From NCBI RefSeq assembly GCF_048403405.1, contig NZ_CP183129.1: a stretch of 64,000 nt of DNA; one strand, written 5' to 3'. The DNA comes from Escherichia coli (lineage in GTDB: Bacteria; Pseudomonadota; Gammaproteobacteria; Enterobacterales; Enterobacteriaceae). This document shows positions 9,160 through 39,805 of the stretch, piece after piece. The notes beneath the pieces were generated by a model, which was not told the DNA's origin, ran no database searches, and worked only from the letters and a program-made list of their open reading frames with translations. Both the position numbers and the translations under genes were made by a program. Numbering within the stretch: position 1 is the stretch's first letter; each line of letters starts with the position of its first letter.

Positions 9160-9534
<375 letters not shown>

Positions 9535-9897
9535 TTATGAGAATAAATACTCATTTAAGGGTGAAAACATTTTGCCTGCAAATGATTATCAGGAAATATA
9601 ACATTATCGAAGTATTCAAATTAACAACTATTAAATAATATTAAACATTTTTAACGTAAACATTAAGAATATTCATCTTGTTATCTGTCTGTATTTTAAC
9701 CAGAATTAAATCAGTATTAGATGCCGTATGAATATCTCGAAATGTTGCTGTGTATCACATACAAATCATCACCGCAGGACCATAGTATTTACATAAGATT
9801 TGTCCCCCCGGAGGTAGTCATCGCAGCAATCGAGTAAATTAGCTTCACCACGGTATATTGTTTCCGTAGAATACCCATAATTATAAGAGAGGTTGTT

Positions 9898-22394: not shown

Positions 22395-24674
22395 ATGGAT
22401 GACCAGTTAAAACAAAGTGCACTTGATTTCCATGAATTTCCAGTTCCAGGGAAAATCCAGGTTTCTCCAACCAAGCCTCTGGCAACGCAGCGCGATCTGG
22501 CGCTGGCCTACTCACCAGGCGTTGCCGCACCTTGTCTTGAAATCGAAAAAGACCCGTTAAAAGCCTACAAATATACCGCGCGCGGTAACCTGGTGGCGGT
22601 GATCTCTAACGGTACGGCGGTGCTGGGGTTAGGCAACATTGGCGCGCTGGCAGGCAAACCGGTGATGGAAGGCAAGGGCGTTCTGTTTAAGAAATTCGCC
22701 GGGATTGATGTATTTGACATTGAAGTTGATGAACTCGACCCGGACAAATTTATTGAAGTCGTCGCCGCGCTTGAACCGACCTTCGGCGGCATCAACCTCG
22801 AAGACATTAAAGCGCCAGAATGTTTCTATATTGAACAGAAACTGCGCGAGCGGATGAATATTCCGGTATTCCACGACGATCAGCACGGCACGGCAATCAT
22901 CAGCACTGCCGCCATCCTCAACGGTTTGCGCGTGGTGGAGAAAAACATCTCTGACGTGCGGATGGTGGTTTCCGGCGCGGGTGCCGCAGCAATCGCCTGT
23001 ATGAACCTGCTGGTAGCGCTGGGTCTGCAAAAACATAACATCGTGGTTTGCGACTCAAAAGGCGTTATCTATCAGGGCCGTGAGCCAAACATGGCGGAAA
23101 CCAAAGCCGCATATGCGGTGGTGGATGACGGCAAACGTACCCTCGATGATGTGATTGAAGGCGCGGATATTTTCCTCGGCTGTTCCGGCCCGAAAGTGCT
23201 GACCCAGGAAATGGTGAAGAAAATGGCTCGAGCGCCAATGATCCTGGCGCTGGCGAACCCGGAACCGGAAATTCTGCCGCCGCTGGCGAAAGAAGTGCGT
23301 CCGGATGCCATCATCTGCACCGGTCGTTCCGACTACCCGAACCAGGTGAACAACGTTCTTTGCTTCCCGTTCATCTTCCGTGGCGCGCTGGACGTTGGCG
23401 CAACGGCTATCAATGAAGAGATGAAACTGGCGGCAGTACGCGCGATTGCAGAACTGGCCCATGCGGAACAGAGTGAAGTGGTGGCTTCAGCTTATGGCGA
23501 TCAGGATCTGAGCTTTGGTCCGGAATACATCATTCCAAAACCGTTTGATCCGCGCTTGATCGTTAAGATCGCTCCTGCGGTCGCTAAAGCCGCGATGGAG
23601 TCGGGCGTGGCGACGCGTCCGATTGCTGATTTCGACGTCTACATCGACAAGCTGACGGAGTTCGTTTACAAAACCAACCTGTTTATGAAGCCGATTTTTT
23701 CCCAGGCTCGCAAAGCGCCGAAGCGCGTCGTTCTGCCGGAAGGGGAAGAGGCGCGCGTTCTGCATGCCACTCAGGAACTGGTAACGCTGGGGCTGGCGAA
23801 ACCGATCCTTATCGGTCGTCCGAACGTGATCGAAATGCGCATTCAGAAACTGGGCTTGCAGATCAAAGCGGGTGTTGATTTTGAGATCGTCAATAACGAA
23901 TCCGATCCGCGCTTTAAAGAGTACTGGACTGAATACTTCCAGATCATGAAGCGTCGCGGTGTCACTCAGGAACAGGCTCAGCGTGCGCTGATCAGTAATC
24001 CGACAGTGATCGGCGCAATCATGGTTCAGCGTGGCGAAGCCGATGCAATGATCTGCGGTACGGTGGGCGATTATCATGAACATTTTAGCGTGGTAAAAAA
24101 TGTCTTTGGTTATCGCGATGGCGTTCACACCGCAGGTGCCATGAACGCGCTGCTGCTGCCGAGTGGTAACACCTTTATTGCCGATACCTACGTCAATGAC
24201 GAACCAGACGCAGAAGAGCTGGCGGAGATCACCTTGATGGCGGCAGAAACTGTTCGTCGTTTTGGCATTGAGCCGCGTGTGGCTCTGTTGTCGCACTCCA
24301 ACTTTGGTTCTTCTGACTGCCCGTCGTCGAGCAAAATGCGTCAGGCGCTGGAACTGGTCAGGGAACGTGCACCAGAACTGATGATTGATGGTGAAATGCA
24401 CGGCGATGCAGCGCTGGTGGAAGCGATTCGCAGCGACCGTATGCCGGACAGCCCTTTGAAAGGTTCCGCTAATATTCTGGTGATGCCGAACATGGAAGCT
24501 GCCCGCATTAGTTACAACTTATTGCGCGTTTCCAGCTCGGAAGGTGTGACTGTCGGCCCGGTGCTGATGGGCGTGGCGAAACCGGTTCACGTGTTAACGC
24601 CGATCGCATCGGTACGTCGTATCGTCAACATGGTGGCGCTAGCCGTGGTTGAAGCACAAACCCAACCGCTGTAA
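22395..24674 (+). CDS. maeB: NADP-dependent malic enzyme (malic enzyme core + phosphotransacetylase-like C-terminal domain)
   Basis: 759 aa, [44 protein letters not shown]... Confidence 0.93.
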
Positions 24675-24692
24675 TTCATTCTTAACTCTCAC

Positions 24693-24727
24693 GCTTACCC
24701 TGAATATTCAGGGTAAGCGGTTTTCCT
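24693..24727 (+). terminator. strong intrinsic terminator after maeB
   Basis: Perfect palindrome GCTTACCCTGAATA/TATTCAGGGTAAGC followed by GGTTTTCC, 19 bp after the maeB stop. Confidence 0.8.
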
Positions 24728-24966
24728 GAAATATATTAGCAAAGCTTATTACTGAGTTTGCGAATAATAAAAAAAGCAGTATATAAAATATCTCGATATT
24801 ATTTTATTTATATTCATGCCTCGCATATGAAAGTTTATTCATAACAGTAAATATCTCTCCATTCTTAGTGATCTACCTCACCTTTTAAACGCGCTTGCCG
24901 AATTTTGTTATTTACTCTGACGAAAAATTGTCACGATACACGAAAGTTTTTCACAGGCGGCGACTC

Positions 24967-25302
24967 ATGGATAAAGAACGCATCATTCAGGAATTTGTGC
25001 CCGGCAAACAGGTCACACTGGCGCATCTCATCGCGCATCCCGGCGAGGAACTGGAGAAGAAAATCGGCGTTCCTGATGCGGGCGCAATCGGCATTATGAC
25101 GCTAACTCCCGGCGAAACGGCGATGATCGCCGGTGATTTAGCACTAAAAGCCGCCGATGTGCATATCGGTTTTCTCGACCGTTTTAGCGGCGCGTTGGTG
25201 ATTTATGGCTCGGTGGGTGCAGTAGAAGAAGCGTTATCACAAACCGTCAGCGGTTTAGGGCGTTTATTAAATTATACGCTTTGTGAAATGACCAAAAGTT
25301 AA
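24967..25302 (+). CDS. eutS: ethanolamine-utilisation microcompartment shell protein EutS (BMC domain)
   Basis: ATG 24967: [57 protein letters not shown]... (111 aa). The track start at 24895 is upstream in-frame in an AT-rich leader. Confidence 0.9.
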
Positions 25303-32617: not shown

Positions 32618-33844
32618 ATGGGAATTAACGAAATCATCATGTACATCATGATGTTCTTTATGCTGATAGCTGCCGTAGACAGGATCCTGTCGCAGTTCGG
32701 TGGTTCTGCTCGTTTCCTCGGTAAGTTCGGTAAAAGTATCGAAGGATCAGGCGGTCAGTTCGAAGAAGGCTTTATGGCAATGGGCGCTCTGGGCCTGGCG
32801 ATGGTCGGTATGACCGCGCTGGCACCGGTACTGGCTCACGTACTCGGGCCGGTGATTATCCCGGTTTACGAAATGCTCGGCGCAAACCCGTCAATGTTCG
32901 CCGGAACACTGCTGGCGTGCGATATGGGCGGGTTCTTCCTCGCCAAAGAGCTGGCGGGCGGCGACGTAGCAGCGTGGCTATACTCTGGGTTAATTCTCGG
33001 GTCGATGATGGGGCCAACGATTGTGTTTTCCATTCCGGTGGCGCTCGGCATTATCGAACCTTCTGACCGTCGTTATCTGGCGCTCGGCGTGCTGGCGGGC
33101 ATTGTGACCATTCCGATTGGCTGTATTGCTGGTGGTCTGGTTGCTATGTACTCCGGTGTGCAGATCAACGGTCAGCCGGTGGAATTCACCTTTGCGCTGA
33201 TCCTGATGAACATGATCCCGGTACTTATCGTTGCGGTGCTGGTGGCGCTGGGGCTGAAATTCATCCCGGAAAAAATGATCAACGGCTTCCAGATCTTCGC
33301 CAAATTCCTCGTTGCATTGATCACCCTCGGTCTTGCTGCCGCGGTAGTGAAATTCCTCCTTGGCTGGGAACTGATCCCCGGTCTGGATCCTATCTTTATG
33401 GCCCCTGGCGACAAACCCGGTGAAGTGATGCGCGCCATTGAAGTTATCGGTTCTATCTCCTGCGTTCTGTTAGGGGCGTACCCGATGGTGCTGCTGCTGA
33501 CCCGCTGGTTTGAAAAACCGCTGATGAGCGTCGGTAAAGTGCTGAATATGAACAACATCGCGGCAGCTGGCATGGTGGCAACGCTTGCTAACAACATCCC
33601 GATGTTCGGCATGATGAAGCAGATGGATACCCGCGGCAAAGTCATCAACTGCGCCTTCGCCGTTTCCGCTGCTTTCGCCCTGGGTGACCACTTAGGCTTC
33701 GCCGCTGCCAACATGAACGCCATGATTTTCCCGATGATTGTCGGCAAGTTGATCGGCGGCGTAACGGCGATTGGCGTGGCGATGATGCTGGTGCCAAAAG
33801 AAGACGCGACCGCGGCCAAAACCGAAGCGGAGGCACAATCGTGA
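32618..33844 (+). CDS. eutH: EutH, ethanolamine permease
   Basis: 408 aa polytopic membrane protein; ATG 32618 after GGGAG. Confidence 0.9.
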   Translation: MGINEIIMYIMMFFMLIAAVDRILSQFGGSARFLGKFGKSIEGSGGQFEEGFMAMGALGLAMVGMTALAPVLAHVLGPVIIPVYEMLGANPSMFAGTLLACDMGGFFLAKELAGGDVAAWLYSGLILGSMMGPTIVFSIPVALGIIEPSDRRYLALGVLAGIVTIPIGCIAGGLVAMYSGVQINGQPVEFTFALILMNMIPVLIVAVLVALGLKFIPEKMINGFQIFAKFLVALITLGLAAAVVKFLLGWELIPGLDPIFMAPGDKPGEVMRAIEVIGSISCVLLGAYPMVLLLTRWFEKPLMSVGKVLNMNNIAAAGMVATLANNIPMFGMMKQMDTRGKVINCAFAVSAAFALGDHLGFAAANMNAMIFPMIVGKLIGGVTAIGVAMMLVPKEDATAAKTEAEAQS

Positions 33845-35244
33845 ACACTCGCCAGCTACTGAGCGTCGGTATCGATATCGGCACCACCACCACCCAGGTG
33901 ATTTTCTCCCACCTGGAGCTGGTTAACCGTGCGGCGGTGTCGCAGGTGCCGCGCTACGAATTCATCAAACGCGAAATTAGCTGGCAAAGCCCGGTGTTCT
34001 TTACCCCTGTCGATAAACAGGGTGGTTTAAAAGAAGCGGAACTGAAAACCTTAATCCTGGAGCAATATCAGGCTGCGGGCATTGCGCCGGAAAGTGTTGA
34101 TTCTGGTGCCATCATCATCACCGGTGAAAGCGCGAAAACCCGCAACGCTCGCCCGGCGGTGATGACGCTCTCCCAGTCTCTGGGCGATTTTGTCGTCGCC
34201 AGCGCCGGGCCGCATCTCGAATCCGTGATCGCCGGTCACGGTGCCGGGGCGCAAACCCTTTCTGAACAACGGCTGTGTCGGGTACTGAATATCGATATCG
34301 GCGGTGGCACTGCGAACTACGCCCTGTTCGATGCCGGAAAAATCAGCGGCACCGCCTGCCTCAACGTCGGCGGTCGCCTGCTGGAAACCGACAGCCAGGG
34401 GCGCGTGGTTTACGCTCATAAACCGGGGCAGATGATTGTGGATGAGTGCTTCGGCGCAGGCACCGACGCCCGTTCGCTGACCGGCGCGCAGCTGGTGCAG
34501 GTTACCCGGCGGATGGCAGAGCTGATTGTCGAAGTGATTGACGGAACGCTTTCGCCGCTCGCGCAGGCATTAATGCAAACCGGTTTGCTGCCCGCAGGTG
34601 TTACGCCCGAAATCATTACGCTTTCTGGCGGCGTGGGCGAATGTTATCGCCACCAGCCCGCCGACCCGTTCTGTTTTGCCGATATCGGCCCGCTTCTGGC
34701 AACGGCGCTGCATGACCATCCGCGCCTGCGTGAGATGAACGTGCAGTTTCCGGCGCAAACCGTACGCGCCACGGTGATTGGCGCGGGTGCACATACCCTT
34801 TCGCTCTCTGGCAGCACAATCTGGCTGGAGGGCGTACAACTGCCGCTGCGCAATTTGCCGGTGGCGATCCCAATTGATGAAACGGATCTGGTGAGTGCCT
34901 GGCAACAGGCGCTGATTCAGCTGGATCTTGATCCCAATTCTGACGCGTACGTGCTGGCGCTTCCCGCCTCGCTGCCTGTGCGTTACGCCGCGGTACTGAC
35001 GGTCATCAACGCGCTGGTCGATTTCGTCGCGCGTTTTCCGAATCCGCATCCCCTGCTGGTGGTGGCCGGGCAGGACTTTGGTAAAGCTCTGGGCATGTTG
35101 TTGCGCCCACAGCTACAACAACTCCCGTTGGCAGTCATTGACGAAGTGATTGTCCGCGCGGGGGACTATATCGACATTGGTACGCCTCTTTTTGGCGGAT
35201 CGGTTGTGCCGGTGACGGTGAAATCACTCGCATTTCCTTCCTGA
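33841..35244 (+). CDS. eutA: EutA, ethanolamine ammonia-lyase reactivase
   Basis: 467 aa; GTG start 33841 overlapping the eutH stop; ASKHA-fold motifs (GIDIGTTTT). Confidence 0.9.
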   Translation: MNTRQLLSVGIDIGTTTTQVIFSHLELVNRAAVSQVPRYEFIKREISWQSPVFFTPVDKQGGLKEAELKTLILEQYQAAGIAPESVDSGAIIITGESAKTRNARPAVMTLSQSLGDFVVASAGPHLESVIAGHGAGAQTLSEQRLCRVLNIDIGGGTANYALFDAGKISGTACLNVGGRLLETDSQGRVVYAHKPGQMIVDECFGAGTDARSLTGAQLVQVTRRMAELIVEVIDGTLSPLAQALMQTGLLPAGVTPEIITLSGGVGECYRHQPADPFCFADIGPLLATALHDHPRLREMNVQFPAQTVRATVIGAGAHTLSLSGSTIWLEGVQLPLRNLPVAIPIDETDLVSAWQQALIQLDLDPNSDAYVLALPASLPVRYAAVLTVINALVDFVARFPNPHPLLVVAGQDFGKALGMLLRPQLQQLPLAVIDEVIVRAGDYIDIGTPLFGGSVVPVTVKSLAFPS

Positions 35245-35255
35245 GGGAACGACTT

Positions 35256-36617
35256 ATGAAACTAAAGACCACATTGTTCGGCAATGTATATCAGTTTAAG
35301 GATGTAAAAGAGGTGCTGGCTAAAGCCAACGAACTGCGTTCGGGGGATGTGCTGGCGGGCGTTGCAGCGGCAAGCTCACAAGAGCGCGTGGCGGCAAAGC
35401 AGGTGTTGTCGGAAATGACCGTAGCGGACATCCGCAATAATCCGGTGATTGCCTATGAAGATGACTGCGTGACGCGGCTGATTCAGGACGACGTTAACGA
35501 AACGGCCTACAACCAGATTAAAAACTGGAGCATCAGCGAACTGCGTGAGTATGTCCTGAGCGATGAAACCAGCGTGGACGACATTGCCTTTACCCGCAAA
35601 GGGCTGACCTCGGAAGTGGTTGCGGCGGTAGCGAAGATTTGCTCCAACGCGGACCTGATCTACGGCGCGAAGAAAATGCCGGTAATCAAAAAGGCCAATA
35701 CCACCATCGGTATTCCGGGCACCTTCAGCGCCCGTTTGCAGCCAAATGACACCCGTGACGACGTGCAAAGTATCGCTGCGCAAATCTACGAAGGGCTTTC
35801 CTTCGGGGTGGGCGATGCGGTGATCGGCGTCAACCCGGTGACGGACGACGTGGAAAACTTAAGCCGCGTGCTGGACACCATCTACGGCGTGATCGACAAA
35901 TTCAACATTCCGACCCAGGGCTGCGTGCTGGCGCACGTCACCACCCAGATTGAAGCGATCCGTCGTGGCGCACCGGGCGGGCTGATTTTCCAGAGTATCT
36001 GCGGCAGCGAAAAAGGGCTGAAAGAGTTTGGCGTGGAGCTGGCGATGCTCGATGAAGCACGCGCAGTGGGCGCGGAGTTCAACCGTATCGCCGGGGAAAA
36101 CTGCCTCTACTTCGAAACCGGACAAGGTTCGGCGCTGTCCGCTGGCGCTAACTTCGGCGCTGACCAGGTGACGATGGAAGCGCGTAACTATGGGCTGGCG
36201 CGTCATTACGATCCGTTTATCGTCAACACCGTGGTCGGTTTTATTGGGCCGGAGTATCTCTACAACGACCGCCAGATTATCCGCGCGGGCTTAGAAGATC
36301 ACTTTATGGGCAAGCTGAGCGGCATCTCTATGGGCTGTGACTGCTGCTACACCAACCACGCTGACGCTGACCAGAACCTCAACGAAAACCTGATGATCCT
36401 GCTCGCCACCGCAGGCTGTAACTACATCATGGGGATGCCGCTGGGTGATGACATCATGCTCAACTACCAGACTACGGCCTTCCACGACACCGCCACTGTG
36501 CGTCAGTTACTCAACCTGCGCCCGTCACCGGAGTTTGAACGCTGGCTGGAAAGCATGGGCATTATGGCAAACGGTCGCCTGACCAAACGGGCGGGCGATC
36601 CGTCACTGTTCTTCTGA
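35256..36617 (+). CDS. eutB: EutB, ethanolamine ammonia-lyase large subunit
   Basis: 453 aa, MKLKTTLFGNVYQFKDVKEVLAKANELRSGDVLAGVAA...; starts 11 bp after eutA. Confidence 0.93.
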   Translation: MKLKTTLFGNVYQFKDVKEVLAKANELRSGDVLAGVAAASSQERVAAKQVLSEMTVADIRNNPVIAYEDDCVTRLIQDDVNETAYNQIKNWSISELREYVLSDETSVDDIAFTRKGLTSEVVAAVAKICSNADLIYGAKKMPVIKKANTTIGIPGTFSARLQPNDTRDDVQSIAAQIYEGLSFGVGDAVIGVNPVTDDVENLSRVLDTIYGVIDKFNIPTQGCVLAHVTTQIEAIRRGAPGGLIFQSICGSEKGLKEFGVELAMLDEARAVGAEFNRIAGENCLYFETGQGSALSAGANFGADQVTMEARNYGLARHYDPFIVNTVVGFIGPEYLYNDRQIIRAGLEDHFMGKLSGISMGCDCCYTNHADADQNLNENLMILLATAGCNYIMGMPLGDDIMLNYQTTAFHDTATVRQLLNLRPSPEFERWLESMGIMANGRLTKRAGDPSLFF

Positions 36618-38752: not shown

Positions 38753-39805
38753 ATGAAAAAGACCCGTACAGCCAATTTGCACCATCTTTATCATGAACCC
38801 TTACCCGAAAACCTGAAGCTCACGCCGAAGGTCGAAGTGGATAATGTTCATCAACGACAGACAACGGATGTCTATGAACATGCTTTGACAATTACCGCCT
38901 GGCAGCAGATTTACGATCAGCTGCATCCGGGCAAGTTTCATGGTGAATTTACGGAAATTCTACTCGATGATATTCAGGTTTTTCGTGAATACACCGGTCT
39001 GGCGCTGCGTCAGTCGTGCCTGGTCTGGCCGAATTCGTTCTGGTTTGGCATTCCGGCGACGCGCGGTGAGCAGGGATTTATCGGTTCGCAATGTCTGGGA
39101 AGCGCAGAAATAGCGACGCGCCCTGGTGGAACCGAGTTTGAATTAAGTACGCCGGATGATTACACGATCCTTGGCGTAGTGCTTTCTGAAGATGTCATCA
39201 CCCGTCAGGCTAACTTTTTGCATAATCCGGATCGGGTATTACATATGCTGCGTAGCCAGTCGGCGCTGGAAGTGAAAGAGCAGCATAAAGCCGCGCTGTG
39301 GGGCTTTGTCCAACAGGCGCTGGCGACATTTTGCGAGAACCCGGAAAATCTTCATCAGCCTGCTGTGCGTAAAGTGCTGGGGGATAATTTGCTAATGGCG
39401 ATGGGGGCGATGCTGGAAGAAGCGCAGCCAATGGTGACGGCGGAAAGCATCAGTCATCAGAGTTACCGTCGGTTGCTTTCCCGCGCCCGTGAATATGTGC
39501 TGGAAAACATGTCTGAGCCGGTGACTGTGCTGGACTTGTGTAATCAACTGCATGTCAGCCGCCGCACGCTACAAAACGCGTTTCACGCTATTTTAGGCAT
39601 TGGCCCAAATGCGTGGCTGAAACGCATTCGCCTGAACGCCGTACGCCGCGAACTGATAAGCCCTTGGTCGCAAAGCACAACGGTAAAAGACGCCGCCATG
39701 CAGTGGGGATTCTGGCATCTGGGGCAATTTGCCACGGATTACCAGCAGCTGTTTGCCGAGAAGCCGTCGTTGACGCTGCATCAGCGGATGCGGGAATGGG
39801 GGTGA
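38753..39805 (+). CDS. eutR: EutR, AraC-family activator of the eut operon
   Basis: 350 aa; C-terminal AraC HTH (region around [33 protein letters not shown]). Confidence 0.9.

Follow-up and report, generated by a model that had tools for sequence, protein, structure and literature searches.

The regulatory region upstream of eutS in Escherichia coli: a conserved promoter core and an Escherichia-specific AT-rich spacer

Genes and base composition at the maeB-eutS junction

The DNA between maeB and eutS was analyzed within a 64 kb stretch of the E. coli genome (the window). From 24660 to 24980 it is 100% identical to E. coli 042 and other strains, where the RefSeq annotation has maeB to the left of it and eutS to the right. 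The open reading frames and the RefSeq annotation of the identical 042 sequence put the end of maeB at 24674 and the ATG of eutS at 24967, and place the region under study directly 5' of eutS, which opens the operon whose last gene is eutR. The interval singled out in a sequence-only reading of this DNA as the leader and promoter of eutS (24728-24966) was exact, running from the maeB terminator to the last base before the eutS start codon. The eut operon is continuous from eutS to the AraC-family gene eutR at its far end (Table 1). The eutA-like and eutB-like ORFs abut one another (33841-36617 of the window), so that the operon is uninterrupted in the present strain; K-12 carries the CPZ-55 prophage at that place.

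Table 1. Features of the maeB-eutS intergenic region and flanking genes (window coordinates; promoter positions relative to the inferred start).
Feature	Position	Strand	Basis
maeB intrinsic terminator: hairpin 24692-24719 and short T-run 24721-24724	24692-24724	+	terminator scan, RNA fold
Escherichia-specific AT-rich spacer, 136 bp, 24.3% GC, -216 to -81, candidate H-NS nucleation region	24728-24863		alignment, BLAST, E. coli genome counts
Palindromic TCGAGATATT / TCGATATTAT, H-NS high-affinity motif-like, 1 and 2 mismatches to TCGATATATT	24787-24802		motif scan
CRP site cttAGTGAtctaccTCACCttt, core 24868-24881, centre -69.5	24864-24885		matches published Footprint-seq site
Box B TTGCCGAATTTTGTTATT, 18 bp, -49 to -32, presumed EutR (AraC-family) site abutting/overlapping weak -35	24895-24912	+	conservation, position
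Extended -10 TGtCACGAT: TG at -15/-14, hexamer CACGAT at -12 to -7	24929-24937	+	conserved as TGyCACGAT in most Enterobacteriaceae loci
Inferred eut P1 start, A, 23 nt before ATG	24944	+	orthology with Salmonella dRNA-seq
5' UTR, 23 nt, Shine-Dalgarno-like AGGCGG at 24955-24960	24944-24966	+	sequence reading
eutS, first gene of the operon, BMC-domain shell protein	24967-25302	+	RefSeq annotation of identical 042 sequence; Pfam BMC domain
eutR, trans-acting AraC-family activator, far end of the same operon	38753-39805	+	350-aa ORF; C-terminal HTH_18 and HTH_AraC

The marked AT-richness reported ahead of eutS is real: the GC content of the interval is 31.8%, against 53.3% for the whole window, and just 0.4% of all 239-bp windows in the 64 kb are as low. 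Only one other place is equally AT-rich (9402-9873), with a minimum of 20.6% GC over 136 bp; it is flanked by an arsC/yffB-like ORF on one side and by the beginning of a gene for an acrD-like RND pump on the other. The AT-richness is unevenly distributed within the interval, GC being 24.3% in the upstream part (24728-24863; hereafter the AT block) and 41.7% in the downstream part (24864-24966); the AT-rich string quoted in the earlier reading occupies 24765-24815 and has a GC content of 13.7%.

The description of the maeB terminator as strong needs some qualification as regards its T-run. The hairpin has a 12-bp stem, a folding energy of -22 kcal/mol and a z-score of -6.5, and is kept across Escherichia. 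It is followed by GTTTTCC, so the T-run comprises four Ts, and this part is variable: positions 24720-24727 read GGTTTTCC here and GTTTAG in a K-12-like strain, ATCC 25922 and strain 111. Because of the GTTTAG reading in these other alleles, the terminator may be leaky in many strains, with some read-through towards eut.

The conserved promoter core

To obtain a phylogenetic footprint, 58 eutS loci were gathered (one genome per species) and the upstream DNA of 26 Enterobacterales loci was aligned with the window. Conservation begins abruptly at about 24864. The 103 bp from there to the eutS start codon hold a CRP site, a second conserved box (Box B) and an extended -10, and 5233 of 5398 E. coli records show at least 99% identity over them. 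Most Citrobacter and Klebsiella loci that adjoin maeB have its terminator a few bases upstream of the point where conservation begins, and other genes occupy that place in Salmonella arizonae/diarizonae, Pluralibacter and some Citrobacter. The AT block therefore has no counterpart outside Escherichia, since the conserved sequence starts at about 24864 with a terminator or other genes just upstream in the other genera. The extra DNA at the junction differs by genus, an example being a radical-SAM-like gene in S. arizonae/diarizonae (such DNA is seen at loci L006-L008, L015, L022, L029 and L030), and despite this variety the conserved promoter has one and the same starting point, Box A, in every case.

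Box A (AGTGATCTACCTCACCTTTT, 24867-24886) has a GTGA-N6-TCAC core and coincides with the CRP site, which reads aGTGA-N6-TCACc and matches 15 of the 22 consensus positions. An in vitro Footprint-seq preprint on K-12 reported ttAGTGAtctaccTCACCttt upstream of eutS, centred at 2575900 and with an estimated Kd of about 9 nM (PMC12871828), and the CRP site of the window is identical in sequence to it. The targets from CRP genomic SELEX also include eutS (PMC3105977). Box A keeps a fixed offset in all Enterobacterales loci, and among the eutS loci compared it is absent from those of alpha- and betaproteobacteria and of Pseudomonas. Its centre at -69.5 is counted from an inferred start and may therefore be wrong by 1-2 bp, and it misses the textbook class I positions (-61.5, -71.5 or similar) by the same amount.

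Box B is unique in the window and is found unaltered, some 72 bp before the ATG, in 36 of 59 loci, of which 35 are eutS loci from other genomes. A recognisable form of it also precedes eutS in Morganella, Iodobacter, Telmatospirillum, Pseudomonas and Ventosimonas. Across 35 distinct promoters from three proteobacterial classes, a hexamer of the form NAnnnT follows 37 bp (30 cases) or 38 bp (six cases) after the start of Box B, and the hexamers of the distant taxa (among them TAGTAT, TAAGAT, TAGGAT and TAGCAT) make better -10 elements. According to a review, purified EutR binds the main eut promoter (P1) and gives a DNase I footprint just upstream of the -35 that confirms a motif from comparative genomics (PMC5821096); as the position of Box B fits this footprint, we infer that it is presumably the EutR binding site. 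A literature search with the Box B sequence string returned unrelated papers only. Box B and its fixed distance from the -10 are also kept upstream of eutS in alpha-, beta- and other gammaproteobacteria that have no CRP site (L034, L036, L042, L045 and L052), and no divergent eutR was found within 1.5 kb upstream of the distant loci with Box B. The conservation pattern suggests that the activator site may travel with the operon in horizontal transfer, host-specific inputs being added later.

The start of transcription was placed by orthology with Salmonella. Two dRNA-seq studies of strain SL1344 assign the primary eutS start to a position 23 nt before the ATG, and give a promoter string, CTTGCCGAATTTTGTTATTTACTCCGACAAAAAATTGCCACGATGACGGCA, that ends in CACGATGACGGCA and is annotated 'Sigma 70 (-10)' (PMC3293720, PMC3963941). 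The string ends at CACGAT+7, and the Salmonella call is based on few reads (3 and 1, taking the columns as read counts) under non-inducing conditions. Since the distance from CACGAT to the ATG is equal in E. coli and Salmonella, the E. coli P1 start would be at 24944; the text of the Cappable-seq supplement yielded no E. coli start-site data for the locus. A start of transcription within the interval is thus predicted from orthology and conserved geometry, the precise E. coli position being carried over from Salmonella. What had been called a 240-bp leader is in fact far shorter, with a transcribed leader of about 23 nt by orthology with the two Salmonella data sets, and no significant structure was found when this leader was folded (z = +1.15).

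A start some 24 nt further upstream (about 24920) was also considered. TGtTATTTA within Box B, which resembles an extended -10, would then serve as the -10; the EutR site over the -35 would be Box A, at -56 to -31 as is typical of AraC-type activators; and the conserved AAAAATTGyCACGAT would be a leader element. A CsrA study in Salmonella transcribed its eutS RNA from -47, equivalent to 24920, but that paper does not call the position a start site, and two dRNA-seq data sets give -23. Box A, moreover, is a CRP footprint with a GTGA-N6-TCAC core, and Iodobacter, Pseudomonas and Telmatospirillum do not keep the TTATTTA part of Box B, yet retain TTGCCGAT and, 37-38 bp downstream, a good -10 hexamer. 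We regard a start at 24920 as very unlikely, and this candidate was dropped on the strength of the dRNA-seq start at -23 and of the conserved distance from Box B to the -10.

With the start at 24944, the -35 region would be TATTTA at a 17-bp spacing, a poor match to the consensus. A strict sigma-70 scan of the interval found no promoter with both hexamers, as would be expected of an activator-dependent promoter, for which such a result is uninformative, and the near lack of a consensus -35 itself implies a need for activators. Taking these elements together, it is very probable that the interval is the regulatory region of P1, the known main promoter of eutSPQT...R, with the promoter confined to the last 100 bp or so. 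RNA polymerase with sigma-70 would use the extended -10 and, having essentially no -35, would require activators. EutR, whose gene stands last in the operon, would bind TTGCCGAATTTTGTTATT at -49 to -32 and activate if ethanolamine and adenosylcobalamin are available, and CRP-cAMP at -69.5 would impose catabolite control; the two together would recruit RNA polymerase, and transcription from 24944 would yield the short unstructured leader. Induction by ethanolamine plus adenosylcobalamin that depends on EutR has been reported for EHEC and Salmonella (PMC8565329, PMC10433801). The earlier proposal that the main eut promoter lies inside the interval is in this respect well founded, with a conserved CRP site, a presumed EutR box and a -10 all in its 3' 100 bp or so.

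Comparison with known eut and AraC-family systems

The closest parallel is eut P1 of S. Typhimurium and EHEC, which depends on EutR, ethanolamine and AdoCbl (Roof & Roth 1992 and Luzader 2013, via PMC5821096) and lies at the same locus with the same gene order, eutR being last. Salmonella matches in Box A, in Box B, in the -10 and in the spacing of the latter to the ATG, and nothing essential is different. The Escherichia promoter differs in having the extra 136-bp AT block upstream, and in a leader that lacks the GGA found in the ribosome-binding region of Salmonella. In Salmonella, most Klebsiella and many Citrobacter, the eutS leader has a GGA (as GGAGA or GGAGG) 13-14 nt before the start codon; the Escherichia sequence at this place (24944-24969) is CAGGCGG, and its sole GGA overlaps the start codon (AUGGAU). 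The eutS transcript is bound by CsrA in Salmonella, and CsrA control of eutS may differ in Escherichia.

The promoters of araBAD, rhaBAD and melAB are co-activated by an AraC-family protein and CRP, and have a weak -35, an activator site abutting or overlapping the -35, and CRP further upstream. The layout of eut P1 is similar, with a weak -35, a presumed activator box at the -35 and CRP upstream of it. It differs in having one conserved 18-bp box instead of two clear half-sites, and in an adjoining CRP site at -69.5, not beyond -80. The eut genes of Enterococcus and Listeria serve the same pathway and respond to the same two inducers by other means, through EutVW antitermination and EutX, a small RNA with an AdoCbl riboswitch; E. 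coli eut, in contrast, has no long leader, terminator/antiterminator or cobalamin riboswitch (the Rfam search was empty, and the leader is 23 nt long and unstructured).

The eut promoter, its dependence on EutR, the CRP site and H-NS binding are already published. What is added here is a map of this allele at the level of coordinates, in which the conspicuous AT block is confined to Escherichia and falls outside the conserved promoter. Gut E. coli and Salmonella draw a growth advantage from using ethanolamine, and EutR directly regulates the virulence genes ler and ssrB in EHEC and Salmonella; for both reasons the layout of this promoter is of practical interest.

The AT-rich spacer and H-NS

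No counterpart of the AT block was seen in the aligned Citrobacter, Klebsiella, Salmonella and other loci (26 Enterobacterales), and BLAST found neither homology in the loci of other genera nor a repeat in the rest of the window. The block is present as a single copy in 5312 of 5426 complete E. coli genomes, and in at most two places in any genome. Its sequence is variable, with at least 99% identity in only 63 of 5313 E. coli records and 90-95% identity in 4184. In an alignment of eight Escherichia sequences, pairs differ in the block by 6.1% on average within E. coli and by 28.6% across the genus, compared with 0% and 4.7% for the promoter core. Judged by these alignments, the AT block, which separates the maeB terminator from the promoter, is lineage-specific DNA under weak constraint and stands outside the conserved promoter cassette. 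This speaks against the earlier expectation that the AT-rich block itself would house the promoter, as the block lies at -81 to -216, is missing from the loci of Citrobacter, Klebsiella and Salmonella that were compared, and shows poor conservation within E. coli.

A functional element within the block (an extra activator, IHF or Fis site, an upstream promoter, or a gene for a small RNA or peptide) seems highly doubtful. The sub-block CATGCgyTGCATATGAAAGTTTAT (24815-24838) is common to most Escherichia lineages, and a motif scan found a Fis-like match with one mismatch at 24779-24793. The same scan revealed nothing convincing in the way of IHF sites or phased A-tracts, with no IHF match, and the strict sigma-70 scan gave no promoter-like site in the block. 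An Rfam search of both strands returned no family match in the interval (none at E <= 1), and no credible small ORF was found in the block, those present having no ribosome-binding sites and being broken by indels. The block is, furthermore, missing from genera with an intact promoter, and about 70 bp of it are absent in one Escherichia lineage (L005); nor does a divergence of 6% within E. coli, beside 0% for the core, fit an element of this kind.

Evidence for an interaction with H-NS comes mainly from published ChIP data on K-12. In those data eutS appears under its old name, ypfE. The per-gene table of Higashi et al. 2016 (S2 Table; PMC4720273) lists ypfE and eutP as H-NS-bound in K-12, as well as the unit eutSPQTDM. 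The row for ypfE stands between those for eutP and talA. The K-12 allele of the AT block, taken from a K-12-like sequence, is about 8% divergent from the present one. The notion that the base composition reflects nucleoid-protein silencing accordingly gains support in the form of H-NS occupancy of eutS and eutP, scored per gene. The palindrome at 24787-24802 resembles the H-NS high-affinity motif that was reportedly described in 2007 by Bouffartigues and by Lang. Matches of this type are common (51 in the whole window), so the palindrome is weak evidence. In the papers searched, no statement was found that H-NS silences eut or that eut is derepressed without hns. The region resembles the H-NS-bound, AT-rich promoters known from xenogeneic silencing in its 24% GC block, its motif-like palindrome and the K-12 occupancy of its first genes; unlike the targets of such silencing, the body of the eut operon has a normal GC content.

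The AT block is most likely a landing pad for H-NS or, on a more cautious wording, probably either an H-NS landing site or a neutral spacer, any silencing being putative. The second of these readings, in which the block is neutral filler that AT-biased mutation or an old insertion or deletion at a variable junction has left behind, and in which H-NS binds there with no effect on eut expression, is a plausible one that falls short of probable. It would account for the high divergence, the indels and IS1 insertions, and the different genes found at the same junction in other genera. It fits less well with the retention of the block in 98% of E. coli genomes, and with the reach of H-NS occupancy in K-12 into eutS and eutP, which is the usual companion of repression. 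A bolder form of the H-NS landing pad, which we think unlikely, is that the block is a recently acquired and fast-evolving nucleation pad, a silencing layer placed before a cassette of Box B and -10 that moves with eut between bacterial classes, and that the alleles of different phylogroups tune the induction of eut in the gut.

Two E. coli loci carry an IS1 element in this region (L062 and L064). In E. coli GF31 it is inserted in the AT block (about 24780) and in E. coli PSJ-32-1, independently, at the start of Box B (about 24900), and in both cases eutS is no longer downstream. The maeB-eutS spacer looks like a recurrent target of IS1 at which insertion is able to knock out the operon.
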